42,961 nucleotides of DNA from a virus (Duplodnaviria > Heunggongvirae > Uroviricota > Caudoviricetes), in the IMG/VR virus record IMGVR_UViG_2531839476_000018. The stretch is one strand, 5' to 3'. Below, in pieces: positions 1-37,912 of the stretch. The stretch's first letter is position 1. The number at the start of each line of letters is the position of its first letter. The notes below the pieces were generated by a model, which was given only the letters and a program-made list of their open reading frames with translations, did no database searches and was not told the origin of the DNA. The translations under genes were made by a program, and so were the position numbers.

Positions 1-507
1 ATGCAAAAATCTATTGGGCAACCAAGTGATAACGAAGAAACTGAGTTCGAGGAAGTTGAGGAAGAGCTAAGTAACGAGATTATCCAAAACCCAGATGCAT
101 TTACTCGCGTGCTTGACCGACCAGAAATTCAGGAAATTGTTGTTGCTCATCACGCGTTCCAGGGACCACTTCCACCACCTTATCTTCTTCGTGGGTATCA
201 GGATATTTTACCTGATGCCCCTGAACGGATTTTCCAGTTGACGGAAAAAGAGTTTGCTCACCGCCAAAAAATGGAAGAAAAGGCCCTTGATGGAGCGATA
301 AACCGGGATAAACGAGGACAATTTTATGGTCTTGCTGCGACTCTTTTTACAGTAACATGTGCAACCATATTGGGGCTAACTGGTCACGAAATTTTGGCAG
401 GAACAGTGATCGGTACTGTTGTCGCAGTTGCGGGTATTTTTGTTCTTCGAAAAAAACCAAGCACTAAAAGCAAATCTAAAAACGACAATACCCACGATGA
501 AGAATAG
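1..507 (+). CDS. Hypothetical protein with acidic N-terminus, proline-rich motif (GPLPPPYLLRGY) and C-terminal hydrophobic segment; cargo gene distal to the invertase. The window starts at its ATG, so the 5' end may be incomplete.
   Basis: 168-aa ORF followed directly by a hairpin plus T-tract; composition resembles DUF2335-type phage-associated membrane proteins (from memory, not verified). Confidence 0.45.
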   Translation: MQKSIGQPSDNEETEFEEVEEELSNEIIQNPDAFTRVLDRPEIQEIVVAHHAFQGPLPPPYLLRGYQDILPDAPERIFQLTEKEFAHRQKMEEKALDGAINRDKRGQFYGLAATLFTVTCATILGLTGHEILAGTVIGTVVAVAGIFVLRKKPSTKSKSKNDNTHDEE

Positions 508-529
508 CCCGCGCTGCGGGCTTTTTTAT
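507..529 (+). terminator. Intrinsic terminator after ORF 1-507
   Basis: Stem gcccgc / gcgggc (507-521) with 3-nt loop, followed by TTTTTTAT (522-529). Confidence 0.55.
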
Positions 530-599
530 GGACGAAACAAAAGTCAGTGCTACACTCATTGACGCCACATTGAGGTGGCTTATAGATGGAAATCTCACA

Positions 600-800
600 A
601 TGAAAAAAGCATTTGCTGCCTGTTCGTTTTGTTGTCTCTGGTGGCTTCAACTCAGGCCTCTGCTGGTCGTTGTCAGCACGACAGCGATACTGCCGCTGAC
701 GGCTCCCGCTGCGGTGGGCGCTCTGCGGATTCCCGCCCGGGAGGTGGTGGCATTCGTTAAAAACAAGATCGCAAAAACGGCCTGTGACATGCCACATTAA
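600..800 (+). CDS. Possible small hydrophobic ORF (66 aa, MKKAFAACSFCCLWW...); weak ribosome-binding site
   Basis: ATG at 600 in a GC-rich segment between the terminator and the invertase 3' end; no recognisable homology. Confidence 0.2.
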   Translation: MKKAFAACSFCCLWWLQLRPLLVVVSTTAILPLTAPAAVGALRIPAREVVAFVKNKIAKTACDMPH

Positions 801-848
801 CTTTTCAGTCAACCGTAGCACGTTCTTGTATACGACGTGTCTGCGGTT

Positions 849-1405
849 TTATATAACCCTAGCTGGAAACCTCTTATACAAAGTCGATTCGCCAACATCA
901 TAGATGATCGCCACCTTCTGGCGAGGAATTCCTGCTGCAATTAATCGTCCGGCCTGTGTGCCCATTGTTCTGGTGTAAGTTTGGGACGACGTCCACCAAT
1001 TCGTCCCTGTACGCGAGCAGCTTCCAGTCCAGCTTTTGTTCGTTCAACAATCAGTTCTCGTTCCATTTCAGCCAGGGCACCCATCACATGAAAGAAAAAG
1101 CGCCCCATTGGGGTACTGGTATCAATTGAATCCGTCAGACTACGAAAGTTGATGCCTCGTTCGCGCAACTCCTCCACCAGCACGACAAGATGCCGCATAC
1201 TGCGCCCCAGTCGGTCAAGTTTCCAGACCACCAGCGTATCACCTGCCGATAATGTCCCGAGCAGTTTTTTCAGTCCCGGCCTTTCGGACTTTGTACCGCT
1301 TATCTTGTCTTCAAAAATCAGCTCGCATCCTGCACAGTTCAGCGCATTACGTTGTAGATCTGTGTTCTGGTCATTTGTTGACACACGTACATAGCCAATA
1401 AGCAT
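849..1405 (-). pseudogene. pin: Serine DNA invertase (Hin/Gin/Pin/Cin family), apparently frameshifted between the catalytic domain and the C-terminal HTH domain
   Basis: N-terminus MLIGYVRVSTNDQNTDLQ...VVWKLDRLGRS is the hallmark resolvase/invertase catalytic domain with a GGAG ribosome-binding site 8 nt upstream of ATG 1405. The ORF stops at 941 (…RPKLTPEQWAHRPDD*), while the HTH (QAGRLIAAGIPRQKVAIIYDVGESTLYKRFPARVI*) is encoded in another frame, 849-955. The frames are consistent with 2 extra bases in a CACA repeat near 956-959. Confidence 0.8.
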
Positions 1406-1459
1406 GGTAGATCTCCCTGACAAAAGCAGGAATGATGCCATTTGCTCGTTATTTCTGCA

Positions 1460-1485
1460 TTTTCATAAACGTTGGTTTGGGAGAA
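1460..1485. repeat. hix/gix-like recombination site (right boundary of invertible segment)
   Basis: tttcataaacgttggtttgggagaa; its reverse complement ttctcccaaaccaacgtttatgaaa matches the site at 3395-3419 in 21 of 25 positions and resembles hix half-sites (TTATCAAAAACC). Confidence 0.7.
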
Positions 1486-1863
1486 GCGGCAACGAGGAAC
1501 GTCGGAACGGATACCGGGCAAGTACCAGATATGAGTAGTTTTACAACGGGGCACTCTGGAGTAGCAGACTGGCCGAATCCTAAATCTGGATGGAGTAAGG
1601 GGCCGGATGGGGTAATTACACAATGGGGCATTTTCGGTTTCCCCGTTGGACAGACAGGGACGAATGTTGTTTTCCCGCTACCTTTCCCCGCGCGGGTCGA
1701 ATCAATTACACTGACAATGGCAGATATCCAGGAGTCTCTGCTTTCTCCAACAACCATGCCTGCTTATGGAGTTAACTCAACTGGTACTTCAAGAACGGGT
1801 TTTACAGCCCGTATGTCAGGCGCCGGTGGGTTTAATCTTTGCTATATAGCGAAAGGGAGATAA
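1486..1863 (+). CDS. Alternative tail-fibre C-terminal variable domain (silent in this orientation; would be fused to the constant N-terminus after inversion)
   Basis: The reading frame continues through the crossover site encoding ...VGLGE|AATRNV..., the same LGLGE junction as the expressed fibre at 3395-3420; no start codon or ribosome-binding site of its own. Confidence 0.6.
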   Translation, partial: AATRNVGTDTGQVPDMSSFTTGHSGVADWPNPKSGWSKGPDGVITQWGIFGFPVGQTGTNVVFPLPFPARVESITLTMADIQESLLSPTTMPAYGVNSTGTSRTGFTARMSGAGGFNLCYIAKGR

Positions 1864-1867
1864 CAGA

Positions 1868-2311
1868 ATGAATAAAGTTAAAAGTGTTTACAGCCCGTCC
1901 GAAAATGCAATCTACAACGCAGCGCTATATGAAAGTTATATCAAGGAGGGGACATGGCCGCAGGATGGTATTGAAATCAGCGATGAGGATGCTGTCAGAT
2001 TTAATGGGGGAAATAAGCCAACAGGAAAAATGCTGGGAATGGTTTCAGGGGCCCTTGCATGGGTTGATGAGCCGCCGCTTTCACCAGAACAGAAAATATC
2101 AGATGCAGAAAACATGAAAGCCACATTTCGTGCAAAAGCTGACAGTGAAATATCCTGGCGTCAGGATGCTGTTGATGCTGATATCGCAACTGATGAAGAA
2201 ACTTCAACTCTCACCGAATGGAAGAAATACCGTGTGCTGCTGATGCGTGTTGATACGTCAACAGCACCCGATATTGAATGGCCTACGCCTCCGGCAGTTC
2301 AGGCCAGATGA
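1868..2311 (+). CDS. Tail-fibre assembly protein (alternative copy, for the silent fibre variant)
   Basis: 147 aa ending ...DIEWPTPPAVQAR, the typical Tfa C-terminal motif; immediately follows the alternative fibre exon. Confidence 0.7.
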   Translation: MNKVKSVYSPSENAIYNAALYESYIKEGTWPQDGIEISDEDAVRFNGGNKPTGKMLGMVSGALAWVDEPPLSPEQKISDAENMKATFRAKADSEISWRQDAVDADIATDEETSTLTEWKKYRVLLMRVDTSTAPDIEWPTPPAVQAR

Positions 2312-2876
2312 CATCCGGCGCGGTGCTGGTATCTGTTGCCGTCACCGCGTCAATGTAATCCAGCACGGCGTTAAGTCGGGTTGTTTCTGCCTGAGTCAGT
2401 TTCCGTCCGGTCTGTAATTTCAGCTGAATCAGACTGATGGAAGCCATTGCAGCATCAATCAGTGACTGGCGCTGTGCTTCTGCCGCTTCTACTGCGGCGC
2501 TATGCTGTGCCTCGGTATCCGTCACCCATTTCTCACCATCCCATTTATCGTATGGCGTTAACGGTGAAAGCGTGACATAACCGTCTTTGATGGCACCGAT
2601 ATAATCCACTGTAACAGCTGCGCCATTTTCAGTTGAGTAAACGGTCTCATTGCGATGGTCTTCTTCATGGCTCCATCCCTTACCCGTAAATACTGCCACT
2701 TTTCCCGGAATGTTTTCGCCCGGGTCAATACCAGTGGAACAGGCGGGTATACTTACGCCAGTATTAATATATTCATCAGACCAGCCGGTATATTCATACG
2801 TTACTGCATTATAATAAAAACAACGCATATCGCCCGGCACTGTAGCCAGCCCATTTTCATCAAAAACAGGTTTCAT
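2283..2876 (-). CDS. Tail-fibre assembly protein (expressed orientation)
   Basis: 197 aa ending ...TSTAPDVIWPELPEA; directly downstream of the fibre gene; 3' end convergent with and overlapping the alternative tfa. Confidence 0.75.
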   Translation of the reverse strand: MKPVFDENGLATVPGDMRCFYYNAVTYEYTGWSDEYINTGVSIPACSTGIDPGENIPGKVAVFTGKGWSHEEDHRNETVYSTENGAAVTVDYIGAIKDGYVTLSPLTPYDKWDGEKWVTDTEAQHSAAVEAAEAQRQSLIDAAMASISLIQLKLQTGRKLTQAETTRLNAVLDYIDAVTATDTSTAPDVIWPELPEA

Positions 2877-3763
2877 TATTTAGCCCTCACCAGAAAGTTA
2901 AATGCAATATTTCGTGGACGGGTTTCTGTACCTACATTTTCACTAATTTCACCATAACGTTTAACACTACGAGAGCTAATAGCTCGTAGTGAGGAAGGCA
3001 CATTAAGACCGGGTTCGTCCGTTTTAACTATTCCCCCGTCACCATATGTAGCCAGTATTCCTGGGTTTACTCCTTCCCGTGCACTTCCTGCGGCAAGCCC
3101 GTCCCCCGTCCACAATTCCATATTGTGTGCATGATCCATAATTGTGTGTGATTGCCCTGAAAGTAGGGTACGTCCGACATCAATCCCGCGCCCGTCATCC
3201 CAGATACGAATGAAATCACCGCGTGCGTCAGGTAATGCCAGAGCCGGAAACACTTTCGCCAGCACAGGGTAATCAGTGGCAGAGAATTTCGCGCCGTTGA
3301 ACTTCAAAAACACCATACCGGACCAGCTATCGATTACGGTATCTGGCATTGCAGCGGACGGCCAGAAGAACGGAACGCCAATAGCTGGAGCTCCTTCTCC
3401 CAAACCAAGGTTTTCGAGAGCCGTTTCCACCGTGCCATCCGATTTGATATCACCAAACGGATTCTTGCGGCTCAGGTATTCAACAGCAAACCCCGATCCC
3501 AGCAATTCAACAAAACCGGGCAGATCACCATTATCAAGCACATCCCGTTGCGTTTTGTCACTTACAAACTGGGCCAGAGCTGCAGCAATAAAGCTGGCCT
3601 GCCGAATAACCTTATTGACTTGCGCACTGGATGCTTTCCCTGCTGTAAATCCGGATAAAAGCGCAGGCAACGCTTCCCATTCCTCCTGCGACATAACATT
3701 GGCATTCCGATCAGTTGCAAACGCTTTAAAGTCATTTTTCGCCATCAGAGTAATACTCCCCAT
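2876..3763 (-). CDS. Tail fibre protein (constant N-terminus about residues 1-115, variable C-terminus inside the invertible segment)
   Basis: 295-aa ORF with a fibre-like N-terminus ([30 protein letters not shown]...); the crossover site lies in-frame at the codons for LENLGLGEG. Confidence 0.75.
3395..3420. repeat. hix/gix-like recombination site (left boundary, inside the tail-fibre gene)
   Basis: ttctcccaaaccaaggttttcgagag, inverted relative to the site at 1460-1485. Confidence 0.7.
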
Positions 3764-3767
3764 GCCC

Positions 3768-4424
3768 CTACATCAAAACCACTGATGAATTCGTTATCCA
3801 TATCAAAACCAAAAATTTTGAACCTTCCGATGGGGTTTCCACCGAAGGTGTTTCAATGCCACCCGCCCATACCCCGGCGGCTTTTACTGTGAGATACCCC
3901 TGTTTAATTGCCGCAATTAACTCACGCGATACATCTGAAATATCAGTATCAGGAAAGACCCAGACCGATATCGTCATGTCATGGTTATCGACTATCTGCA
4001 TTCGCAGTCCGGATCCTGCTGTTGCCGCGTCAAGAATTGCCGGAAGCGAATCATTCCGTCCGTCCCAGTTATTAATCGCAATCTTCGCTTTAAGGATGAC
4101 ACGATAAGTTTCATCGCTGAGGTACATGTATCCGGAATCAGGATCGTATGGCCCCTGCCATACACCCTGATCATATCCAAGCCCGTCGGTATCCCAGCTG
4201 AAATAGACACCTGAAATAGGCTGGCTGACAACACGGCTACGTCCGATCCACAATCCCAGAATGTCAAGTTGCACACCAACCGCAGAGTCAATATCAAATG
4301 CAGTAATCAGCCCTCTGGTGGCAGCCGCAACATCAATAAGCGGCCGGGTCATCAGATCAACATGTGCAAGAAATTTAGGTTTGGTGGCGTGGTAGTTTGT
4401 GATTAGTTCGGTGTATTTGCTCAT
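3768..4424 (-). CDS. Baseplate / tail protein (P2 gpI-like or Mu gp48-like position)
   Basis: 218-aa ORF between the baseplate J-like gene and the tail fibre; the family call rests on position and recollection. Confidence 0.5.
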
Positions 4425-5620
4425 GACTCCACCGTTATAACGATATTTTCCGGGGTACAGGACGCAGATTCGTTGTATCTGATATCAATGTTTGATGACG
4501 ACAAAGCCCCCGGGGATTTCCCAATCGTCAGTTCCTGAATATCGTAATAGCGTGCATTCCCGCCACTCACCACGCCAAGATTCGCCGGTGAGTAAATGCG
4601 ACTTAAAAGGACCGAATCACCGATCGTAAGACTATTGATATAGTCGGAAATAGCCTGCTGGATCTGCTGCCCTATCTGTGAGGTATAACCCGTAAAAACT
4701 TTTAATTTAATCCGGGCATAAACAGGCACATCACTGGAACGCGAGAATTTGATTACATGGGGATTGCCGTATTTATCCGGAACCGTAACGGATGTTGTAC
4801 CGTGAGTGGCTGTCCCCTGGCCTTTATTTCCTCTGATAGCCTGAGCAATATCCGTTACATCACCGCCATCCACAATTACAGCAACAGAGTGTGGCGGTAA
4901 CCCGTTACCGTCCTCCGAACCAGTATCGTTTTCATAGAGTTTGTGGCGGGTTACACCGGTAACATTAGAAACAGCACCATCCAGTGCTTCAAATGGGGTT
5001 ATTGATGGCAACGCAACACTTTGCGACTGGCGGATACGTAACTCCGCATCAGTTTCTGCTGGAGTGCCTACAGTAGCTGCAGCAGGATTGGTTACCGAAA
5101 CCCAGCCACGGGTTGGCGTATTAATTTCAGTGATAGTTCCAGCCAGCGCCGCCACTGCACCACTGACGGAACATTTTGCGGTCACCATCACTGTACCATC
5201 CACGCCGACCACCACTGAAGCAGGCAAACGCCATATCACATTATTACTGTCTTTCACGCTGCCATTAATGATGGTTGTTCCGGCAGTTCCTGTAAGAAGC
5301 AAATCAACCGTAGAATTCGTCGCGCCTTTACGTGAAATACCATTTATTTTCACGTTACTGGTCAGTGCAGCCCCATAGCCGGTTGCCGGTGAAAAACAGT
5401 TGTAGACAGTTATCGCCATATTATTGACATCATGAATCGCCAGCGCCATCAGAGCCACCATCTGGCCGTCTTTGCTGTCCGGTTCGAGGTAGGCATCACT
5501 GCCATAAATCTGCTGAAAATAGCTAATCAGGGTGCTGAGTATCGTCTGATAATCAGGCGCACTGATCCCCTCCGCGGTTACCTTTGCAGATAAACCGAGA
5601 GAATCAAGGTTCAGAGCCAT
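4421..5620 (-). CDS. Baseplate J-like protein
   Basis: 399 aa; position and sequence character of the Baseplate_J family (MALNLDSLGLSAKVTAEGISAPDYQTILS...). Confidence 0.7.
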   Translation of the reverse strand: MALNLDSLGLSAKVTAEGISAPDYQTILSTLISYFQQIYGSDAYLEPDSKDGQMVALMALAIHDVNNMAITVYNCFSPATGYGAALTSNVKINGISRKGATNSTVDLLLTGTAGTTIINGSVKDSNNVIWRLPASVVVGVDGTVMVTAKCSVSGAVAALAGTITEINTPTRGWVSVTNPAAATVGTPAETDAELRIRQSQSVALPSITPFEALDGAVSNVTGVTRHKLYENDTGSEDGNGLPPHSVAVIVDGGDVTDIAQAIRGNKGQGTATHGTTSVTVPDKYGNPHVIKFSRSSDVPVYARIKLKVFTGYTSQIGQQIQQAISDYINSLTIGDSVLLSRIYSPANLGVVSGGNARYYDIQELTIGKSPGALSSSNIDIRYNESASCTPENIVITVES

Positions 5621-26631: not shown

Positions 26632-26954
26632 TTGCAAATATTTGCAAGTTAATTTCCGGGTGACGGCTAGGTGACGCGTAATTACATATCCGTCACCTGC
26701 TGCAAAGCGCGCCATATAAAGCCTGAAGATGTTTTAGGTGACAGGTGACGGTTGATTTTAGTTCTATATATATATAAGCGATCGTATAATACCTAAAATA
26801 CACACTCTCGCGTATATAGTTTTAAATTCTGCCGTCACCTGTCACCTTTAGCACATTCCCCATTGTTTTATATATACTTTTTAAGGTGACGCTTAAGCGT
26901 TTTGCCGTCACCTAGCCGTCACCTTTTTACAATCCAGATTGCAAAATTTCGCAA
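26632..26954. repeat. Putative replication origin: iteron cluster around an AT-rich core, bracketed by TTGCAA-N4-TTGCAA palindromes
   Basis: About ten copies of the core GGTGAC(G/A)G / C(C/T)GTCACC in both orientations (26659-26751 and 26832-26923) flanking an AT-rich stretch (26760-26830, tatatatatata). Perfect palindrome ttgcaaatatttgcaa at 26632-26647 and imperfect ttgcaaaatttcgcaa at 26939-26954. Adjacent to the primase-type gene. Confidence 0.6.
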
Positions 26955-29188
26955 GATTTATATATTTCGCGCAATTCTTCGTTGCTGAAATCGTTATTTT
27001 TTACAAGAATCCAAATCCTATATACAAACCCGTCAATTTTTACGCGTACGGGTTCCCGCTTTGTTCTTTCTTTCAAAATGCGAGTAATATGCTTCTGGTT
27101 AATTTCTACATCCATTCCTGCTTCTGCCAGTATTGCGTTAACAATTTGTTGATAAGTCATTGCTGGCACAGGCGGATTATCCAGGATTTCAATAAGAGCA
27201 GCCTCCACATCGCTCTTATTGCTTTCAATCATCAGAAGGCGTTCTTTCGTCTCGGGGGCGCGCTGCCAGTTAAAGCGAGACAGGTCAACGCCCATTAGAT
27301 ACCAGTACACCTGGGCGATAAAGTCGCTGTCGCTTAGCGCACCGTACAGGCTGGCGTAATGCTCTTCAGTTGCGGCGAAGTCAGGGCCCCCCAGCACAGC
27401 TATACGTCGGTCTTCCTCTGGCAGCGCCAGCGCATCAAAGTGGTTGGTGTAGAACAGAAAGCCGGTGTATATATCCATCGTTTTTTTGCTGCCATATTTG
27501 CGGTTCACTTCAAACCGTGGTTCTGTCAGCACGTCACGGATCTTATCGTTCACCTCATACCGCTTATCGTTTTCGCGCACCTCGTCAATGGTGCATAGAA
27601 GTGTATTGTACAGATAGTCATGGAACTGGTTATCGCACAGGATCTTCATGCGAGTACGAGCACAGTTCCACGGGCCAAGCACGCGCTCCATTAACTGACT
27701 GACCCATCCTCTGCCCGTACCATGTGCGGTAGCCACATGCAGAATAGAAATCGGGCATCGACGCTCCGGACGCTGAACCATCCACCCCAGACGGGCGATG
27801 AAAAACTCGCGCTGCCAGGCATCAGGTACCAGATACGCCATATGATTAAGGAACGTGGACACCTTACTTGTATCCGCTGTACGTGGATGCTCAGGCATAT
27901 AAAATTCGTTTATCTCAAACCGCCCGTCGAAACGCTCGATAATACGTCCCGCACCGGGCTTATAGCCTGTCGTCTCAGCAATCTTCTTATGCCGATGCTC
28001 TATCCACCGTTTGGTTGCGGGAGTTGGTTGTCCTTTCCCTTCTGGCGGGAACTGGTAAGGCGCCATCAGGTTTTTGAACGACTTCATATCCATCATGCAC
28101 TGATATGGCGGTCGGCTAAGATCACATACCTGGTCACCCTCGATGACGTAGATAAAGCGTTCCAGAAAATGAGCTGTCATATCTGTATTAATATCGGTAA
28201 ATTCAGGCTTATCGCCATCTTCAGCCACCGTGAGATCTTCGAACAGGGATTGCGTATAGCCGTAGCCTTCCAGCCAGTCGGCATCAGTAAGCCCCGCATC
28301 GGTGTTGTGCATGCTTTTAAAATGTCCCTGTTCAAATCCCCCCGTCCCTTTTGGGAAATACTTAATGGATGTTTCGCTGCAACCGTTGCTGTATTCTGAC
28401 TCATCCCGAAACGGTTTCAGATTGCGGGAACCATCAGAGCTGACTGACAGAGTCCACCCGTTCGCGTCAAGCCAGTCGGCGACATCATCTGTCGCGGAAG
28501 GATCAACACAGGAAAGGTCACGCTGACGTCCTGCACCTGCGGTATAGCTGTCTTTCACGGGTAAGTTATCCGCCAGACGCTGCCACAGGCTTTCGAGCTG
28601 TTCAGATGTAATTTTCAGAGGTTCGCCGGGCAAACCGCTGTCCCACTGAATACGTTCGCCTGCCGGATGGGTACCACAAGCCACAAACTGCTGGCCCTTA
28701 GCGAGCAGCTCTATTTGTTTGTTTTCGCCTTCCAGGCGGTGACCACGTTTACGGTAGTCGCCATCAACAGCAATCAGGTACAGGCATTTATGACTGTCAG
28801 CCCGCCAGCGACGTGGCGGAAGTTCCCCCAGGCATGATAGGATAATATTGCGTACGATCTCCTGCATCCCGGCGTCATTGATATCGCAGTCCAGAGCCAC
28901 CACCCCGTCGCCAGTACGAACGCAAATACCGTAATCGGGTTCGTTCGACCACCGGGCAAAATCGTTTTCCGTAACAACATAGTTAGCCCAGTCGGGGATA
29001 CCAACAACCTTACGTTGGCCATTGTAGCGACTGGGGGTTTTGCCGAAATTATGAGACAGCTTGCTATTAGGCGACAGTTCTGCACAGGGATTGGACACCA
29101 CAGGTAAAAGCCTGTCTGTCATCCCCAACACCAGATCGAAGTGGAACCACTCATCGGGCGTAGCTCCCCATGGTTTGTTATCAGACAT
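26927..29188 (-). CDS. Replication protein, primase-polymerase type with a large C-terminal domain (P4 alpha-like architecture)
   Basis: 753-aa ORF directly downstream of the cro-like gene and upstream of the iteron cluster; N-terminal region has a prim-pol-like character (…GICVRTGDGVVALDCDINDAG…). No GxxxxGK[ST] P-loop was seen by eye. Confidence 0.65.
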   Translation of the reverse strand: MSDNKPWGATPDEWFHFDLVLGMTDRLLPVVSNPCAELSPNSKLSHNFGKTPSRYNGQRKVVGIPDWANYVVTENDFARWSNEPDYGICVRTGDGVVALDCDINDAGMQEIVRNIILSCLGELPPRRWRADSHKCLYLIAVDGDYRKRGHRLEGENKQIELLAKGQQFVACGTHPAGERIQWDSGLPGEPLKITSEQLESLWQRLADNLPVKDSYTAGAGRQRDLSCVDPSATDDVADWLDANGWTLSVSSDGSRNLKPFRDESEYSNGCSETSIKYFPKGTGGFEQGHFKSMHNTDAGLTDADWLEGYGYTQSLFEDLTVAEDGDKPEFTDINTDMTAHFLERFIYVIEGDQVCDLSRPPYQCMMDMKSFKNLMAPYQFPPEGKGQPTPATKRWIEHRHKKIAETTGYKPGAGRIIERFDGRFEINEFYMPEHPRTADTSKVSTFLNHMAYLVPDAWQREFFIARLGWMVQRPERRCPISILHVATAHGTGRGWVSQLMERVLGPWNCARTRMKILCDNQFHDYLYNTLLCTIDEVRENDKRYEVNDKIRDVLTEPRFEVNRKYGSKKTMDIYTGFLFYTNHFDALALPEEDRRIAVLGGPDFAATEEHYASLYGALSDSDFIAQVYWYLMGVDLSRFNWQRAPETKERLLMIESNKSDVEAALIEILDNPPVPAMTYQQIVNAILAEAGMDVEINQKHITRILKERTKREPVRVKIDGFVYRIWILVKNNDFSNEELREIYKSCEILQSGL

Positions 29189-29191
29189 GGG

Positions 29192-29392
29192 TTACGCCTT
29201 TTGTCTAGCTGTCACTTCCTGAAAAAGCTTTTCTATCGCACGTACTGTAGAAAAGCGAGGGTCAGAATGAACCCCGGTGAGAAGCCGACTAATAGAAGAC
29301 TGCTTCACGCCTGCAATTTCGGCAATTTGGTTTTGGGTATACCCTGAATCAATCAAGCTTTTGACCATCTCTTGTGGTGTTAGTCCGGACAT
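29192..29392 (-). CDS. cro: Cro-like HTH regulator
   Basis: 66 aa with HTH TQNQIAEIAGVKQSSISRLL; divergent from cI; GGAG ribosome-binding site; first gene of the early-right operon. Confidence 0.65.
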   Translation of the reverse strand: MSGLTPQEMVKSLIDSGYTQNQIAEIAGVKQSSISRLLTGVHSDPRFSTVRAIEKLFQEVTARQKA

Positions 29393-29533
29393 ATTTAAGT
29401 CTCCACTTTCGTCTATAGCGCAAATTTATACGAAAACGGATTATTCAGCAATACGGCAATTCTATATCATCCTGTATTAAAATATCCGATAACGCATAAT
29501 CACCGTCCCTGTATACAACATGGATGAATCCAA
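29393..29533. promoter_or_regulatory. Immunity switch region (divergent cI / cro promoters and operators); individual operators not resolved
   Basis: 141-bp AT-rich intergenic region between divergent repressor genes; candidate promoter toward cro (ATTGCT-16-TATAAA) and CATAAT 24 bp upstream of the cI start. Confidence 0.5.
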
Positions 29534-30208
29534 ATGATTGATACTACCGATATCCTTTCTCAAAACATCAAGTACCTGATGGACAAAACCAAGATAAGCT
29601 CGATAACTGAGCTGGCACGTCGGTTACAGCTGAACCAACCAACGCTACACAGGCTGGTATCAGGAGAGGTGAAAGATCCGAAATACGCAACGTTAAAGCA
29701 GATCGCCGACTACTTCCACGTGTCACCAATAGACCTGGCAGAAAGGAGCCTTCAAGAAATGGAGAAAGAGGACGCGACAGGTATAAAAACGTATATTTCT
29801 CTTAGGTTTAATAAAGTACCTGTTTTGGGAAACACTCAGCTAGGCGTTGGAGGACTTTGGAGCGACACCCAATATTCAGTAGGTAGCAGTGATGGTTTCA
29901 TATACTGGCCGACAAAGGATGAAGATGCATACGCCCTGAAATGTGTTGGTGATTCAATGATGCCTAGAATCAAAGAGGGTGAGTTCGTAATCGTCGAACC
30001 CAACCACGACTACACTCCTGGTGATGAAGTACTTGTGGTTACCCGGGACGGTGAGGTCATGGTTAAAACCTTCTTGTTCGAACGCGATGGCCTGTTCCAT
30101 CTAATGTCTGTAAATGAAGATCATCCACCAGTCAGAGTACCACGCGAAAACATTGAAAAAATCCATTACGTGGCGGGGATCGCCAAATCCGCGCTACGCA
30201 TGTACTAA
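29534..30208 (+). CDS. cI: CI-type repressor (HTH plus LexA-like S24 autopeptidase domain)
   Basis: 224 aa; N-terminal HTH; C-terminal domain with GDSMMP (catalytic Ser) and a downstream Lys (EVMVKTF), as in lambda cI / LexA. Confidence 0.85.
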   Translation: MIDTTDILSQNIKYLMDKTKISSITELARRLQLNQPTLHRLVSGEVKDPKYATLKQIADYFHVSPIDLAERSLQEMEKEDATGIKTYISLRFNKVPVLGNTQLGVGGLWSDTQYSVGSSDGFIYWPTKDEDAYALKCVGDSMMPRIKEGEFVIVEPNHDYTPGDEVLVVTRDGEVMVKTFLFERDGLFHLMSVNEDHPPVRVPRENIEKIHYVAGIAKSALRMY

Positions 30209-30239
30209 CCTTTACAGTCTGATAACTTACCTCTGATCA

Positions 30240-30271
30240 AACCGCTCTCCACAAGGGCGGTTTTCTTATTT
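30240..30271 (+). terminator. Possible terminator after cI
   Basis: aaccgc ... gcggtt stem with a long loop, followed by TTTCTTATTT. Confidence 0.35.
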
Positions 30272-30292
30272 GCAAAATAATTCATTTTTGTA

Positions 30293-30321
30293 TTGACACA
30301 AAATCCCATAACGCATATAAA
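30293..30321 (+). promoter_or_regulatory. Near-consensus sigma-70 promoter (pL-like), TTGACA-17 bp-TATAAA
   Basis: TTGACA at 30293-30298, 17-bp spacer, TATAAA at 30316-30321; directed away from cI into the early-left region. Confidence 0.6.
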
Positions 30322-30356
30322 TACGATACCGCATAATTAATGCATTTTCTAATACC

Positions 30357-30369
30357 AGCTCTTTAACAA
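30357..30369 (+). promoter_or_regulatory. boxA-like element (AGCTCTTTAACAA), candidate nut / antitermination site
   Basis: 12 of 13 match to the rrn boxA consensus TGCTCTTTAACAA (lambda nut boxA is CGCTCTTA); about 30 nt downstream of the predicted start site. Confidence 0.45.
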
Positions 30370-30514
30370 ACAGAACCGCGTGACAGGTAAGCCGCAGTGC
30401 TCCTGGCAAAACGAAATAGCACCCGATGGGATCGAGGTAAGCGCCGAGTCCGTATGCGTACGGTAAGCGTAGAGGACAACACCGCGACGAACTGATAAGT
30501 CACGCAAGTTGAAA

Positions 30515-30532
30515 CGCCCCGATGATGGGGCG
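30515..30532 (-). terminator. Hairpin cgcccc-gatgat-ggggcg; possible terminator for the convergent 172-aa gene, or a boxB-like stem-loop of the pL leader
   Basis: Perfect 6-bp GC stem; on the minus strand it is followed by TTTCAACTT (moderate T-tract). Confidence 0.3.
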
Positions 30533-30635
30533 CTTAGTTCCTTTAACTCTGGGTGACCGGAAGGGTACCCATGCTTAAAGAAATTACTGGTTGTAAGGAT
30601 CGTAATCCGTGATTGCCTTCCCCGGATTTTCATCT

Positions 30636-31154
30636 TCAGAAGGCAGTCGGGCCTCTAAAGCATTTCGGGTTGAACAGATAGGAAGCCCTACAGTACGAAC
30701 AAACCATATTAACGACTCGCCCAAGGCCTGGCTTAGTAACCAGACCTTCCGCTTGCAATATAGATTTTCTCTTTTGCTCGTAGCAATTGGGACAAATATA
30801 AACCGGAGATTGGTCAGCATCTGCAGAAAGCTTGCTGCGATAGACCAGAGTACCCCGCATAGGCTGGTAAAGTTCATAGCTCGCCGCTTCAGCGGCCCAG
30901 TTCTCTTGCTTTACTTTCTCATTTTCCAGTTCAACAATTTTCTCCTTAGCCGCAATCAGCAGCTCCTGAAGCGACATTTGCTGCATCTGAACATCCATTA
31001 GCTTATCGAGTAAGATGTGCGTCTTCTCTTTAACTGCATAGTCGACAGTCAGATTCTGAATCTCTCTTGCTGCTCCAACCGCGCTTTTAATTGCTCCTCC
31101 CACACCGGATAACGATTCAGTTATCCGGGAAAGAATTCCTTTTTCTTCAGACAT
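30636..31154 (-). CDS. Hypothetical coiled-coil protein with a C-terminal zinc ribbon; cargo gene convergent with cI
   Basis: 172 aa; helical N-terminal two-thirds (…LQELLIAAKEKIVELENEKVKQENWAAEAAS…) and CPNCYEQ…CSYCRAS near the C-terminus; has its own upstream region with direct repeats. Confidence 0.55.
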   Translation of the reverse strand: MSEEKGILSRITESLSGVGGAIKSAVGAAREIQNLTVDYAVKEKTHILLDKLMDVQMQQMSLQELLIAAKEKIVELENEKVKQENWAAEAASYELYQPMRGTLVYRSKLSADADQSPVYICPNCYEQKRKSILQAEGLVTKPGLGRVVNMVCSYCRASYLFNPKCFRGPTAF

Positions 31155-31164
31155 ATCTAATCTC

Positions 31165-31220
31165 TCTCAAACTGTAGGGGTGAAGAGATATTAGACGATT
31201 TCTCACTGTAGGGGTACAAG
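31165..31220. repeat. Direct repeats (core ACTGTAGGGGT twice, 34 bp apart) in the putative promoter of the 172-aa gene
   Basis: actgtaggggt at 31171-31181 and 31205-31215, each preceded by tctc(a); candidate regulator binding sites. Confidence 0.4.
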
Positions 31221-31293
31221 GAGAACCACCTCGCCTGATGTGGTTAAAAGCAGGCACTCGATGATATCCATGTAATTGCTGTGTGTAGTCTTT

Positions 31294-31320
31294 GCCCGCC
31301 GCAAGTGACGGGCTTTTTTA
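31294..31320 (+). terminator. Intrinsic terminator (tL1-like) on the plus strand upstream of the early-left genes
   Basis: gcccg-ccgcaagtga-cgggc followed by TTTTTTAT. Confidence 0.55.
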
Positions 31321-31345
31321 TGTCTGAAAGCGCACTCGCAACAGC

Positions 31346-31528
31346 GTGCTCCCCGATATGAAAAAAGGAATACAACCGATGAAACCTGAACACATCCATC
31401 GACTGACGGGGCGCGATGTTCTCCGTTATCGCCGTAAAAACTTCGATTTGATGACCGGTCTGGCCGTTGCCACTGCGCTCGGTCTGATCATCACTTTCAT
31501 TCTCCTTGTAGCGAGGACCACAGTATGA
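31346..31528 (+). CDS. Small membrane protein with an arginine-rich N-terminus
   Basis: 60 aa: basic segment RLTGRDVLRYRRKNF followed by one transmembrane helix (LAVATALGLIITFILLV). Confidence 0.4.
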   Translation: MLPDMKKGIQPMKPEHIHRLTGRDVLRYRRKNFDLMTGLAVATALGLIITFILLVARTTV

Positions 31529-32427
31529 GTTTAGAAACCAGTCTAGAACTTAATAATCAACTTCTGGCACAACATAATGCGCTGCTTGAACGTCTTATCC
31601 GCACAATGGCATCAGGTATTGTTATGCATCCTGACACGATTTCACGAGTGCAGGAATGTCGGGATACAGCAACTGAAACTGAAAATATGTCAGCGGCAAT
31701 GACACTGGATGATCTGGAGTTCAGCGACGTTATCGCACTGGCTGGTTTCTACCCGGTAGCCACCCCTATCACAGAAGATATGCTGCAACGTGCTGTTGCC
31801 TACCGTGATGCTGAAGGCGATAAACGAGTAGTTCAGATTGATGCTCTCGACAGCGCATTGCAGGGCGTCAAACGAGCCAGGGCGCTGCTTAAACCTGCTC
31901 TCCTGGACCTGTCCCGTAACATCCTTAAGTTCTGGGACGACCTGCCAACCATCGGCGAGCGACGTGCTTTTGCCGAGCAGCTACTTGATGCACCTGCAGA
32001 TGGGCGTGATGAAGTTAAGCCGAAAAAGGCCAGTAACAAAGATGGAGAACGCACGGGGCCGTTTTACGTCAAAAATGTATCCGGCACAGCAGCCAGTGAA
32101 CTCCACACCTTACGCAAGTTGAACGAGATGCTTAAAAAAGGCCATATCGAGATCAACCGTGTTGAGTACCTTCAGCTGCAGGAAGAATTTGCACGCAGAG
32201 ACGCAGCAAATTCCAGCCAGAATAATGACGCCAAAGATGACCATACAATTGATTTCGCGGCACTACGCAAACAAGCTGAAGGGTTGATCCTCCAGTTAGC
32301 AAAAGGGGGCTACCGGGCAGAAGCTATTGCAATTCTGGAAAAACAGGGAGCCAGGAAACTTGGTGAAGTAACGGATGAAAATCTCGCTGAAGTAATCACC
32401 CTGGCTGAAAAAGCACTGGAGGGTTAA
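31525..32427 (+). CDS. Hypothetical protein (early-left operon)
   Basis: 300-aa ORF, start overlapping the upstream stop; no family recognised. Confidence 0.55.
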
Positions 32428-32429
32428 TC

Positions 32430-33731
32430 ATGCCAGACGTTCACGCACAACTTTCTCCATCATCAGCGCATCGATGGATGCGCTGCCCAGGAAGTCTGGC
32501 GCTGGAGGCCACACAACCGGATAAAGAAACAACTTTTGCAATCGAGGGCACTACAGCGCACGCGCTTGCTGAAAAAGTTCTACGAAACAGGCAAAGCCAC
32601 CCGGAACACTACGCCGGATGCAATGTTTCTATGTTTCTCGGCTCATACCCCCTTCGCGAAAATCCTGATGATACATCTGGCCCACAGGTGGATGATGAAA
32701 TGGTCGAAGCCGTCGGCCGGTATGTTGATACGGTCTGGACTCTTGCACAGAATAATGAACTATTGGTTGAACAACGTGTTGATTTCTCACATATAACGGG
32801 TGTGGAAGAATCTTTCGGAACTGCCGACGGCATAATCATCGCTGGTAACGAATTACAAATCCACGACCTGAAATATGGCAAAGGCGTCCGCATTGATGCA
32901 GAACAAAATGAGCAACTACAACTGTATGCTCTGGGTGCTCTCGAACAATTCAGCATGCTGTATGACTTTGAGACTGTAAGATTATTTATTCACCAGCCAA
33001 GGCTCAACCACGTTTCAGAATGGTCGTTAACCGTACAGGAACTTCAGTCTTTCGGTGAACGGGCACTGGAGGCCGCAACCAGTGCGATCCTTGTTCTCAA
33101 TATTGCTGAATGCGAAGGCATTGAGACACTACCGCTGGAAAACTTCATACCTGGAGAAAAACAGTGCCGCTTCTGTAAAGCAAAAGCTATTTGCACTGCC
33201 CAGAAAATGCAGCATTTACAAACAGCGGCCAGCGATTTTGAAGATCTGACAAAGCCTGTCAGCGAAATAATCACCAATGCCAGCGCACGTGTACCTCTGT
33301 TAACCATTGAGCAGCTTGCAGAGATCTATAGCCAGGCCGACTTTATTGAATCCTGGCTAAAGGCAGTACGGGACCGGGTTCACGATGAACTCAATGCCGG
33401 ACATCCGGTACCGGGGTTTAAACTGGTAACAGGAAAACAAGGTAACCGGGCCTGGAGTGATGAAGAGGCAGCTCGCGCACTTCTGAAGGACCAGTTCAGG
33501 TACAAAACTGAAGAAGTATTCGACTTTAAACTTATTAGTCCCACAAAAGCCGAAAAACTTATCAAAAAGGCCAGTCCGCGCCGTTGGTCAAAAGTCGAGG
33601 CACTGATAACACGAGCTGATGGAAAACCCACCGTCGTTCCCGAGTCAGACCCACGCCCCGCACTCAATATCAACCCTGTAAATGATTTCGACGACGTATC
33701 CGACGATACGCTAACCGCAGACCTCATCTGA
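32430..33731 (+). CDS. PD-(D/E)XK-type nuclease (DUF2800 / Cas4-like) with a C-terminal Cys cluster
   Basis: N-terminal [15 protein letters not shown] signature and a C-terminal [10 protein letters not shown] cysteine cluster, as recalled for DUF2800 phage exonucleases. Confidence 0.65.
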
Positions 33732-33746
33732 TTTAAGGAAATACCC

Positions 33747-34295
33747 ATGAAACTGAAGCTGAACAATGTTCGTCTGGCCTTCCCGTCTCTGTTTGAAGCT
33801 AAAACTGTAAACGGCGAAGGCGATCCGCGTTTCTCCGCAGTATTTTTAATGTCTCCCAAACACCCACAACTGGAAGAAATCCGTAAAGCTATGAAGCAGG
33901 TAGCGAAGGAAAAATGGGGAGAGAAGTGGGAGCCCATTTATAACCAGCTGGAGAAAAAACTCAATCTGTGCCTGCATGATGGTGATGAAAAAGCAGAGTA
34001 TGAAGGCTTCCCCGGTAATTTCTTCCTGAATGCTGCTAACAAAGCGCGCCCAGCTGTTCTTGATCGCGATCGTTCGCCACTTATTCAGGCTGACGGACGT
34101 CCCTATGCAGGGTGCTATGTAAACGCCGTTATCGATATCTGGGCACAGGACAATAATTTCGGTAAACGCATTAATGCCTCACTCGGCGGAGTCCAGTTCC
34201 TGCGAGACGGCGATGCATTCGCTGGCGGCGGAGTGGCAAGCGCTGACGATTTCGACGATATCAGCGAAGGTGCTGATGCTGAAGCACTAATTTAA
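33747..34295 (+). CDS. DUF2815-type phage protein (putative ssDNA-binding partner of the DUF2800 nuclease)
   Basis: N-terminus MKLKLNNVRLAFPSLFE typical of DUF2815 as recalled; directly follows the nuclease. Confidence 0.6.
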   Translation: MKLKLNNVRLAFPSLFEAKTVNGEGDPRFSAVFLMSPKHPQLEEIRKAMKQVAKEKWGEKWEPIYNQLEKKLNLCLHDGDEKAEYEGFPGNFFLNAANKARPAVLDRDRSPLIQADGRPYAGCYVNAVIDIWAQDNNFGKRINASLGGVQFLRDGDAFAGGGVASADDFDDISEGADAEALI

Positions 34296-34310
34296 CCCTA
34301 CTTCATAGAC

Positions 34311-34329
34311 GCCCGGTTAAACACCGGGC
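34311..34329. other. Hairpin between convergent genes (gcccgg-ttaaaca-ccgggc)
   Basis: Perfect 6-bp stem between the 3' ends of the DUF2815 gene and AT-rich island 1; no strong T-tract on either side. Confidence 0.3.
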
Positions 34330-34347
34330 TACTGATTAGGCGTATAA

Positions 34348-34542
34348 TCACTCAGGAATCTTAATCTTTCTCAATTCTTTATTTAGTTCACAGATCTTTT
34401 TCTTAGACGGGAAAGTATCATACATCCAAAAACCAACAGTCTCTAAAACTATTATCATAACCATATACACAAGATAATTTAAAAGGCCTTCATTTTGCCC
34501 TATGGAAATAATGCAGATAATAGAAAAAAGGGTAAACAGCAC
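34348..34542 (-). CDS. AT-rich island 1, distal ORF (membrane protein fragment); possibly the frameshifted C-terminal part of one gene
   Basis: 64-aa hydrophobic ORF overlapping the upstream ORF in another frame across an A6/T6 homopolymer (34524-34529). Confidence 0.4.
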   Translation of the reverse strand: MLFTLFSIICIISIGQNEGLLNYLVYMVMIIVLETVGFWMYDTFPSKKKICELNKELRKIKIPE

Positions 34543-34976
34543 AAAACACAGAAAGGAAAACAGACGACTAATAATAAATAAAAAACCTGAAAAATCAACA
34601 TTAATAAAAACACTCCGTTATCTTTCTCTATATAATTCTGAAGCTTAATCAACTGATTTATATACTGTCTTTTTTCTAATCTATTGCAAATGTAAATAAC
34701 ATCTCTTCGGTTATAAGATGATTGCAATTTCAGCGCATCACGAATAATTTTATCATTTATTCTTTTTTCTATGGCACTCTTATCCTCCTCATCCAGATAA
34801 CGTTCATACTTAACTAAATATAAAATTAACTTCTTAACATATTTAGGCTCTTTATACTTATAATTAAAAATGATCTTTCTTATCCAGACTCCCATAACAA
34901 TCAAACATGAAAAAATATATCCAGCTATTTTCTCCAGATGCTCTGTATGGTCAATCAAGTATTGGATCATATGCAT
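34500..34976 (-). CDS. AT-rich island 1, proximal ORF: membrane protein of unknown function (cargo, antisense to the early operon)
   Basis: 158 aa with an N-terminal TM helix, a charged middle and a hydrophobic C-terminus; flanking intergenic DNA and the gene are visibly more AT-rich than neighbouring genes. Confidence 0.5.
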   Translation of the reverse strand: MHMIQYLIDHTEHLEKIAGYIFSCLIVMGVWIRKIIFNYKYKEPKYVKKLILYLVKYERYLDEEDKSAIEKRINDKIIRDALKLQSSYNRRDVIYICNRLEKRQYINQLIKLQNYIEKDNGVFLLMLIFQVFYLLLVVCFPFCVLCCLPFFLLSALFP

Positions 34977-35022
34977 AATTAATCTTTTAATCAGTTAATA
35001 GAATAAAAACCAAGGTAAACAC

Positions 35023-37150: not shown

Positions 37151-37912
37151 ATGCAGGAACTAACTGAAATGCCGATCACCTATCCATACCCGAGAGAAAC
37201 TTTTCCTGACTTTTTGAGGGAGTGTGGGTTCACCAATTTTTCCCACGAACAGCGTGAGACTTGTGACTGCTATCGTTTAACGAATGGCGTAATTGTTAAC
37301 CTTTACACCACCCGGACCATTCAGTTTCAAGGTAACCCTCAAGAACGTCCCAATGTTGAAACTGCAATAATGACCCATTTAGGAACGCCGCCCACGGCAA
37401 CACCACTAGCCGTAGAACAGCCATCTGAGCTCCCCAAAAAGATATTCATTGTTCACGGCCATGACCATACTGCAAAGGAGCAACTTGAGCTAATCCTTCA
37501 TAAACTTGGATTACCAGACCATTTCATTTTGCAGAATACGGGAGGGACTGGACTCACCATTATTGAAGAGCTTGAACGTGAAATTGGGCAAGGACAAACT
37601 GCTACCCGTTTCGGGATTGTTCTTTTGACACCTGATGATATGGGATACTCAAAGCGCGCCGGTGAAGCAGAAATCCAACCCCGCGCAAGACAGAACGTTG
37701 TACTCGAGATGGGTATGCTTCTTTCGTCCTTAGGGCGCAGCAATGTAGCAATCCTTCAGAAACAGCACCTAGAACAGCCTTCTGATGCTAACGGGATTTT
37801 GTATCTGAATTTCAACGACCATGTACGTGAAACAGTTCCTCGTCTAGTGCAACGGTTACAAAATTCTGGTTTCGAATTTACACAAGCTCAAATAGCTAAC
37901 GCTTCCTCGTAA
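37151..37912 (+). CDS. Hypothetical protein with a C-terminal TIR-like / nucleoside-deoxyribosyltransferase-like motif set; candidate defence effector
   Basis: 253 aa; residues about 100-250 contain KIFIVHGHDHTAKEQLELIL … GIVLLTPDD … NVVLEMGML, resembling TIR-like (COG4271-type) domains as recalled; unknown N-terminal 95 aa; AAGGA ribosome-binding site; own terminator. Confidence 0.4.
   Translation: MQELTEMPITYPYPRETFPDFLRECGFTNFSHEQRETCDCYRLTNGVIVNLYTTRTIQFQGNPQERPNVETAIMTHLGTPPTATPLAVEQPSELPKKIFIVHGHDHTAKEQLELILHKLGLPDHFILQNTGGTGLTIIEELEREIGQGQTATRFGIVLLTPDDMGYSKRAGEAEIQPRARQNVVLEMGMLLSSLGRSNVAILQKQHLEQPSDANGILYLNFNDHVRETVPRLVQRLQNSGFEFTQAQIANASS

Follow-up and report, generated by a model that had tools for sequence, protein, structure and literature searches.

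The window, by which we mean the whole 42,961-bp stretch of DNA analysed here, carries a tail-fibre cassette at the late-operon end of a complete, 40-kb, SEN34-like temperate myovirus prophage. By position, the locus comprises:

849-1405, minus strand: Pin-family serine DNA invertase gene (pinE-like), read here as a pseudogene; its frame stops at 941-943 after 154 aa

955-960: (TG)3 run, (CA)3 on the coding strand, with a 2-bp insertion; intact alleles have (CA)2

1321-1383, minus strand: candidate recombinational enhancer (a positional guess), two Fis-like 15-bp cores with a 48-bp spacing, at nt 30 and nt 78 of pin

1460-1485, plus strand: left 26-bp crossover site, core TT at 1472-1473, heading the silent exon, 55 bp upstream of the pin start codon

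1472-3408: invertible segment, 1,937 bp core to core, bounded by both sites

1474-1863, plus strand: silent alternative fibre C-terminus (P-type), Pfam Gp53-like_C (E 7e-10), 36% identity to the StfP C-terminus

1868-2311, plus strand: tail-fibre assembly gene of the silent (P-type) C-terminus, Caudo_TAP (E 6.5e-33)

2283-2876, minus strand: tail-fibre assembly gene of the expressed (E-type) C-terminus, Caudo_TAP (E 1.8e-28), 63% identity to TfaE

2876-3406, minus strand: expressed variable fibre C-terminus (E-type), 42% identity to e14 StfE

3395-3420, minus strand: right 26-bp crossover site, core AA at 3407-3408 (plus strand), inside the expressed fibre gene at the codons for LENLGLGEG

3409-3745, minus strand: constant N-terminal fibre part, with a SEN34-type domain for baseplate attachment (residues 1-90) and a portable "joint" (residues 92-117)

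3768-4424, minus strand: DUF2612 baseplate-wedge gene (Pfam DUF2612, E 1e-45), immediately upstream of the fibre gene in the late operon, 3' end frameshifted

The original prediction had placed two inverted 26-bp sites at 1460-1485 and 3395-3420; they are present exactly there, and an inverted-repeat search finds the pair (20 nt, 95% complementary). The left site reads TTTTCATAAACG TT GGTTTGGGAGAA on the plus strand and the right one, as its reverse complement, CTCTCGAAAACC TT GGTTTGGGAGAA. They share the TT/AA core and are identical at 21 of 26 positions (the 21 identities had been counted correctly, but out of 25), the inner half-site and core being the same throughout (14/14). Each has a 2-bp core flanked by a pair of imperfect 12-bp half-sites, and the two sites are inverted relative to each other, as in known invertase switches. 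The 19-mer that they share, AAACSTTGGTTTGGGAGAA, occurs at these two places only in the 42,961 bp, against 0.01 occurrences expected from shuffled sequences. A search of the whole window for a third crossover site, with up to 3 mismatches allowed, returned only the 2 site-core matches, and other AAACCNNGGTTT-like matches in the window lie far from the sites and are at chance level. A multi-site system (Min of p15B, the R64 shufflon or a three-site P2-like switch) was considered and rejected, the window having 2 sites only.

The roles of the two sites are the reverse of those first proposed. It is the right site (3395-3420) that lies within the expressed fibre gene, which runs on the minus strand from 3745 to 2876 and passes through the site at ...LENLGLGEG, and it is the left site (1460-1485) that heads the silent exon (plus strand, ...INVGLGE/AATRNV..., stop codon at 1861-1863; the slash marks the junction). 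The start of the expressed fibre, MAKNDF, agrees with the annotation of E. coli DEC5E. When the segment is inverted in silico between the core dinucleotides (1472-3408), the reading frame is kept, so that the predicted continuity of the alternative exon with the constant region holds: the recombined fibre has 242 aa from the annotated start (248 aa if counted from the ATG that precedes it, at 3763), with the junction ...LENLGLGE/AATRNVGTDTG...IAKGR. Each C-terminus has, as had also been proposed, its own assembly gene, and these two genes, both Caudo_TAP, converge with a 29-bp overlap. The P-type assembly protein is 42% identical to the C-terminal part of TfaP over 74 aa, and the two proteins end in the same 15 residues (APDIEWPTPPAVQAR). 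The expressed E-type C-terminus gives a weak Pfam match to Collar, under the curated cut-off (E 0.0036).

This arrangement suggests how the cassette would work. The in-frame site would end the constant part of the fibre, and inversion at the TT/AA core would exchange the C-terminal receptor-binding part, together with the assembly gene downstream of it, for the alternative fibre/assembly pair, which lies in reverse at the opposite end. A scan finds no sigma-70-like promoter inside the segment, which speaks for this reading. Such an inversion would be expected to alter the adsorption specificity of the phage; in the orientation of the window, the constant part would be joined to the StfE-type C-terminus.

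The system itself is already known, this being one more textbook Gin/Pin tail-fibre switch. The P segment of e14 in E. coli K-12 (stfP-tfaP / tfaE-stfE'-pinE), with its invertase PinE, was described by Plasterk & van de Putte (1985), whose work we take as it is cited in PMC4272514, and more recently by Kirigo et al. (2025, PMC12529663). Both 26-bp sites of e14 are identical to those of the window (26/26), the left one corresponding to the pinE-proximal site and the right one to the site internal to stfP, and the published e14 repeat, TTGGTTTGGGAGAAG (PMC12529663), is contained in the window sites. The genes follow one another as in e14, down to the 29 bp by which the convergent tfa genes overlap; the same joint stands ahead of the site, and both cassettes have a leader ORF of the stfE type. 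The window has pix-type sites, a PinE-type invertase (once repaired) and StfP/StfE C-termini with TfaP/TfaE genes, and DNA similarity to e14 comes in islands: 92% over pin and the left site, 93% over the 3' ends of both tfa genes and 96% over the right site and joint, the last 28 residues of the constant part being 96% identical to StfP. It amounts to a nearly exact copy of the switch of the E. coli e14 element in a different prophage. There are nevertheless differences from e14: the segment has 1,937 bp against 1,797 bp, the variable fibre domains are only 36-42% identical, the N-termini of the Tfa proteins differ, fibre residues 1-90 and the baseplate are of the SEN34 type (DUF2612) instead of the e14 type (DUF2313 YmfQ), the cassette resides in a complete myovirus prophage of 40 kb instead of a 15-kb remnant, and the invertase gene is frameshifted, unlike that of e14.

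The G segment of phage Mu with its invertase Gin (Sc-Sv-U / U'-Sv'-gin) has the same plan: an in-frame crossover site at which the constant part of the fibre ends, two module pairs of the Sv/U type arranged head to head, and an invertase gene just beyond the segment. The gix site also encodes ...NLGL..., and the window site matches it at 18 of 26 positions, but the Mu core is TC/GA and not TT/AA, the G segment measures ~3 kb, and its fibre and Tfa sequences show no close relationship to those of the window. hixL agrees with the two sites of the window at 19-20 of 26 positions. The Hin/hix system (the flagellar switch of Salmonella; PMC3798978) has 26-bp sites with 12-bp half-sites and a 2-bp core, and a recombinase of the same family; however, what Hin inverts is a promoter, and its gene is part of the inverted segment, whereas the window cassette swaps coding exons and has its invertase gene outside. 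In P2-like prophages of pathogenic E. coli, sequencing has shown that tail-fibre segments phase-vary by inversion (Goldberg et al. 2014, PMC4272514); one published P2-like case has three sites and four variants where the window has two sites. Finally, the pinE cassettes of O157:H7 are 96% identical to the window over 64% of a 2.9-kb query and occur in both orientations among strains; these O157:H7/P2-like loci have another phage backbone and, unlike the window, adjoin a phage replication protein gene.

Switching does occur in a close homologue. A homologous cassette (~94.5% identical), its pinE intact, is found in BH100N and BH100, two substrains of E. coli BH100. The two differ by an exact inversion, identity after reverse-complementing breaking exactly at the TT/AA core. 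Both orientations of the segment also occur among O55:H7, RIVM and O157:H7 isolates. In DEC5B, at the same chromosomal site, the E-type module lies in the opposite orientation to that of the window, whose expressed E-type C-terminus is 98% identical to the silent copy of DEC5B. Homologues are in this way found in both orientations, with the exchange at the core dinucleotide; the window copy is seen in one.

The invertase gene next to the segment is a member of the Pin family by descent and appears from its sequence to be a pseudogene in the present copy. Alignment with the intact pinE of O55:H7 DEC5B places a 2-bp insertion (GGGCACACAGG in the window and in DEC5E, GGGCACAGG in DEC5B) just ahead of helix 1 of the DNA-binding domain, where it shifts the frame. 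Pfam recognizes Resolvase (E 1e-50) in the window protein, whose motif YVRVSTNDQ surrounds the expected catalytic serine, and no HTH_7, whereas the Pin of DEC5B has both; an adjacent recombinase joining Resolvase to a C-terminal HTH_7 is thus lacking in the window. Once repaired, the protein is 97% identical to K-12 PinE, and its top match among solved structures is Mu Gin (3UJ3, 182 aa aligned, E 4e-93). RefSeq labels the near-identical locus of O55:H7 DEC5E "pinE, frameshifted". Of 5,426 E. coli genomes, DEC5E alone gives a 100% match, and the runner-up stands at 97.1%; the window and the DEC5E RefSeq sequence both carry the insertion and yet differ at 6 other positions in 7.8 kb. This insertion had been overlooked in the original prediction. 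A frameshift within a short (CA)n run could, in principle, also be an assembly error.

The description of the locus as a host-range switch of the Mu/e14 type consequently survives as regards the architecture, and can be narrowed to the e14 type because the sites are identical to those of e14 and the repaired invertase is so close to PinE; the assumption that the switch works finds no support, the invertase being frameshifted and without HTH_7. We think it very probable that we are dealing with an e14-type P-segment cassette in a SEN34-like prophage, whose cis invertase is inactive and whose switch is frozen unless an invertase is supplied in trans. Truncated after 154 aa, the enzyme would lack the domain that binds the sites, and since the insertion removes HTH_7, the present copy probably stays locked as long as no second enzyme of the Pin family is supplied in trans. 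Flipping could be restored by another Pin/Gin-family invertase made in the cell: PinQ and PinE supplied in trans do invert the e14 P segment (PMC12529663), and DEC5E has 2 pin-like places by count, that is, one further pin-like sequence. Since the invertase gene is a pseudogene, the orientation in this lineage is best treated as fixed unless another Pin is present.

Flipping, where it takes place, would presumably also depend on Fis and on a recombinational enhancer, for which the 5' part of the invertase gene had been suggested as the place to look. The location that we can offer there (1321-1383) is tentative. In a scan of pin for Fis cores, the pair at nt 30 and nt 78 (TGTCAACAAATGACC and GTGCAGGATGCGAGC) is the best-scoring one with a 48-bp spacing and was chosen for its match to the geometry of Hin; several cores score comparably, for instance a second 48-bp pair at nt 90/138. 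The nearer core lies ~100 bp from the left site, and both position and spacing fit the Hin enhancer, which lies ~100 bp from hixL inside the recombinase gene (PMC3798978; further enhancer details were taken from PMC4784862). On the other hand, position -7 of the first core is not a G, and the centre of the second is rich in G/C. Both are conserved among pin, e14 pinE and Mu gin, but this conservation proves nothing because the cores coincide with conserved codons.

It seems unlikely to us that the switch is nevertheless autonomous and active, with the adjacent invertase flipping the segment in cis and lysogens releasing both types of fibre. Both sites and both fibre/Tfa modules are intact, homologous cassettes with an intact pinE do flip, and an error of sequencing or assembly in a dinucleotide run is conceivable; but the insertion is present in the window and in the independent RefSeq assembly of DEC5E, HTH_7 is lost, and the window Pin carries in addition the change R50G, at a position where K-12 PinE and the DEC5B Pin have Arg and Gin has Lys. 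Moreover, a second late gene is damaged: the DUF2612 gene has a 1-nt deletion in an A4T6 run (near 3810-3816 by alignment) relative to DEC5B, DEC5E and BH100N. This bears on the reading that we prefer as well: with the gene damaged the prophage may make no virions, and host-range switching would then be moot.

Another scenario, which we also consider improbable, is that the cassette is kept for the benefit of the host in a decaying prophage, the silent exon yielding, in the lysogen and in the present orientation, a free Gp53-like receptor-binding protein that blocks the adsorption of other phages, as is reported for StfE2 of e14, with the orientation set in trans by another Pin. The exon had been described as promoterless. 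A promoter scan of 800-4000 indeed detects no sigma-70-like promoter inside the segment and none able to serve the silent exon or pin, the sole match (924-897, minus strand) lying within the 3' end of pin; the promoter of pin itself is presumably weak and to be expected near the left site, and the scan neither supports nor excludes it. The exon does not lack a start altogether, however: at 1432/1435, beyond the segment, stands an ATG from which an ORF of 143 aa (1432-1863) runs through the exon, with a leader of 14-17 aa (MMPFARYFCIFINVGLGE) that is homologous to the stfE leader of e14 (MPFACYFFIFINVGLGE). The window is in a state analogous to the inverted state of e14, which is reported to create StfE2 (the stfE leader followed by the gp53-like C-terminus of StfP), a protein that blocks adsorption of T2 (Kirigo et al. 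2025, PMC12529663), and the cis invertase would be dispensable in such a model. An orientation set by a Pin-family enzyme encoded elsewhere would even explain why this invertase was lost while the sites and modules stayed intact. Against this, besides the missing promoter-like site, the Shine-Dalgarno sequence is poorly spaced (AGGA, 0-3 nt ahead of the ATGs), the variable domain shares no more than 36% identity with StfP, the leader DNA must be conserved anyway (crossover site and pin 5' region), and the activity of StfE2 was shown by over-expression from a plasmid (PMC12529663). That the inverted repeat might be a chance match, or the remnant of a tail-fibre gene duplication, without any function in recombination, has nothing but its short length to speak for it and is already refuted by the 0.01 matches expected by chance, by the identity of the sites with the experimentally defined ones of e14 (PMC12529663) and by the exact inversion at the same sites between the BH100 substrains.

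For the e14-type cassette with an inactive cis invertase, which we prefer, the importance lies mostly in annotation. RefSeq already labels parts of it (pinE, and tail fiber assembly protein twice), and the correct model of the fibre gene is a constant part with two alternative C-termini. Beyond annotation, the conserved unit of joint, sites and pin on a fibre base of the SEN34 type illustrates the movement of receptor-binding modules between unrelated tails: in tblastn comparisons, fibre residues 1-90 share 68% identity with the tail fibre of SEN34, whereas residues 92-117, the joint common to e14 StfP and the short fibres of the SfV family, are 96% identical to SfV, SfII and SfI.

The two inverted 26-bp crossover sites placed at 1460-1485 and 3395-3420 by the original prediction were recovered from a sequence reading and a repeat search of the window (inverted repeat with arms 1467-1486 and 3394-3413); they agree at 21 of 26 positions, with all 14 matching across the core and inner half-site. 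A search of the 42,961 bp that tolerated up to 3 mismatches placed their common 19-mer at these two sites alone (0.01 expected), and a looser search with AAACCNNGGTTT gave nothing further of note, so that there are exactly two sites and a shufflon is ruled out. The roles proposed for them were the reverse of those observed: the right site lies in the expressed fibre gene, and the left one heads the silent exon.

Features of the cassette (gene order from the ORF list and Pfam)
849-1405, minus: pin, the pinE-like invertase gene, starting at 1405 just outside the left site
1460-1485: left site, TTTTCATAAACG TT GGTTTGGGAGAA
left site to stop at 1863, plus: silent exon, headed by the left site (...FINVGLGEAATRNV...), with a Gp53-like_C domain in its product (E 7e-10)
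1868-2311, plus: second Caudo_TAP gene
2876->2283, minus: Caudo_TAP assembly gene
3395-3420: right site, reverse complement CTCTCGAAAACC TT GGTTTGGGAGAA
3745->2876, minus: expressed fibre gene, containing the right site
3768-4424, minus: DUF2612 gene
4421-5620, minus: Baseplate_J gene

The silent exon and the second Caudo_TAP gene are stored backwards relative to the minus-strand fibre operon, and a promoter scan found no sigma-70-like promoter inside the invertible segment. When 1472-3408 is inverted in silico, ...LENLGLGE is fused in frame to AATRNVGTDTG..., giving a fibre of 242 aa from the annotated start MAKNDF; the alternative exon is indeed continuous with the constant region, as had been expected. 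It was also correctly proposed that each C-terminus has its own assembly gene: the two tfa genes converge, with a 29-bp overlap, and both fibre-tip/chaperone modules are complete. If the analogy with Mu and P1 holds, the two pairs of tip and Tfa would differ in receptor specificity (PMC12529663; PMC4272514).

When 5,426 complete E. coli genomes were queried with the window and with its inverted version, the two sets of best matches were disjoint. A cassette with about 94.5% identity to that of the window, and with pinE intact, is present in the E. coli substrains BH100N and BH100; the base-by-base check of this one pair found them identical save for the reverse-complemented DNA between the sites, the identity breaking exactly at the TT/AA core, a pattern characteristic of Hin/Gin-type exchange with a 2-bp stagger. 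In E. coli O55:H7 DEC5B, where the prophage occupies the same location in the chromosome, pinE is intact and the silent position is taken by an E-type module (resembling StfE/TfaE of e14); this prophage's P-type (StfP/TfaP-like) module is unlike that of the window, so module replacement occurs too.

The window is 99.9% identical to the prophage adjoining yfhH in another O55:H7 strain, DEC5E. Its cassette is laid out as the mirror image of K-12 e14 (ymfQ-stfP-tfaP / tfaE-stfE'-pinE), and both 26-bp sites are letter-for-letter those of e14 and include the repeat that has been published for its P segment of 1,797 bp (PMC12529663). A chance origin of the repeat is excluded by this identity, by the 0.01 expectation and by the exact inversion between BH100N and BH100. 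At the protein level, PinE is 97% identical to the repaired window invertase, StfE 42% to the expressed variable part and TfaE 63% to its Tfa, the StfP C-terminus 36% to the silent part and TfaP 42% to its Tfa. The DNA shared with e14 is confined to three islands.

Islands of DNA shared with e14
826-1486: pin and left site, 92%
2249-2564: 3' ends of both tfa genes, 93%
3390-3472: right site and last 28 codons of the constant part, 96%

With pin as the reference point, the invertible DNA is flipped compared with e14 in the MG1655 reference, which corresponds to the state that Kirigo et al. call 'StfP2/StfE2' (PMC12529663). The locus is an already known system, specifically of e14/Pin type; the original prediction of a Mu/e14-type switch recognised it correctly, apart from exchanging the sites and overlooking that the invertase is a pseudogene. 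The Mu G segment follows the same logic, its gix sites matching those of the window at 18 of 26 positions, with a TC/GA core, and likewise encoding NLGL; among solved structures, the repaired Pin matches Gin best (182 residues aligned, E 4e-93).

Fibre residues 1-90 are not e14-like; they share 68% identity with the Salmonella phage SEN34 tail fibre and are found again in myoviruses of Klebsiella and Burkholderia. The joint, residues 92-117, is 96% identical to the short fibres of SfV, SfII and SfI. The structural module shows 98% identity to the phage records vB_EcoM-689R2/606R2 and 81% to SEN34; a repressor, replication genes and an integrase are encoded elsewhere in the window. Thus a different, complete myovirus carries, as a graft, an e14-type unit of joint, segment and pin. 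The 26-28 residue joint (DNA 3390-3472) is 96% conserved among fibres with unrelated N-termini (SEN34-type in the window, e14 StfP, SfV/SfII/SfI) and looks like a portable recombination linker bearing the crossover site. The window also has its own replication set at 26927-37086 (Prim-Pol/DUF5906 protein, DUF2800 PD-(D/E)XK nuclease, Enc34-type ssDNA-binding protein, family A DNA polymerase), with an SNF2-type helicase at 39501-40895; temperate myoviruses of E. coli do not usually have such a set, which is typical of the SEN34 group.

Aligned with DEC5B, the pin coding strand has a 2-bp insertion (GGGCACACAGG versus GGGCACAGG; on the plus strand, a (TG)3 run at 955-960), and the frame stops after 154 aa (...PEQWAHRPDD*). 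Position 50, which we take to correspond to Hin Lys51 in our own numbering, is Gly (Arg in PinE, Lys in Gin). By Pfam, only the Resolvase domain is left, whereas the intact orthologue adds HTH_7 (residues 138-179); the lost part spans the region aligned with helix 1 of the Hin DNA-binding domain, in which Gln151, Arg154 and Leu155 contact Fis (PMC3798978). An autonomously active switch would require this frameshift to be an error, and we think such a switch very improbable. The insertion allele was found in DEC5E only among the 5,426 genomes, its gene is marked 'frameshifted' in RefSeq, and the window differs from DEC5E RefSeq by 5 SNPs and 1 indel over 7.8 kb; the two are not the same sequence, so the insertion has been seen twice. 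Its predicted product indicates that the cis invertase cannot bind its sites, and we infer from this that the switch of the window copy is locked unless complemented. Complementation in trans is plausible, as Gin, Cin, Hin and Pin are mutually substitutable, and a second pin-like place in DEC5E might provide such activity. PinQ and PinE supplied in trans invert the e14 P segment (PMC12529663).

In the related Escherichia phage vB_EcoM-606R2 (ON470579.1), a record whose end includes host genes (yfhH), the invertase gene (L002 2953-3267) keeps only about 90 native codons and then diverges to a stop, with both crossover sites kept; more than one member of the prophage group has therefore lost its invertase independently.

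A host-defence role after Kirigo et al. 2025 (PMC12529663) could be sought in ORF 1432-1863, which combines a leader, MMPFARYFCIFINVGLGE, homologous to that of e14 stfE with a Gp53-like domain, as in StfE2; the ORF lacks a promoter-like site, however, its ribosome-binding site is poor, and we give this reading very little credit beside a locked e14-type switch.

The Fis-binding enhancer suggested for the 5' part of the invertase gene is tentative. Of the Fis-like 15-bp cores spaced by 48 bp, the best pair occupies window 1321-1383 (nt 30 and nt 78 of pin); its distance from the core of the left site, about 100 bp, agrees with the native arrangement of Hin. Both cores are conserved in Mu gin, but they are imperfect Fis motifs and coincide with the conserved codons for VSTNDQ and CAGCE. 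Inversion would presumably depend on Fis and an enhancer.

The DUF2612 baseplate gene (3768-4424), just upstream of the fibre gene, is damaged differently in the window (1-nt deletion in an A4T6 run, ~3810-3816, changing the last ~20 residues) and in DEC5E RefSeq (W120*, TGG->TAG at 4066 of the window). These lesions and the pin frameshift common to both sequences point to a prophage lineage in decay or, for the window indel, to a homopolymer sequencing error. The gene at 37151-37912 (plus strand) encodes 253 aa with a TIR domain of CAP12/Pycsar type (Pfam E 3e-31); the full length of the protein matches the PADLOC candidate defence family PDC-S35 (E 7e-109), and it is probably anti-phage cargo in the prophage early region. 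Finally, the stretch from pin to the end of the prophage resembles a moron slot of variable content beside the invertase: it holds a DUF2335 membrane protein and a 90-aa ORF in the window (1-800), two unrelated hypothetical proteins in DEC5B (L003 395-1369), and a GIY-YIG LEM-3-like protein in Eco_23-2667 (L005 616-1389).
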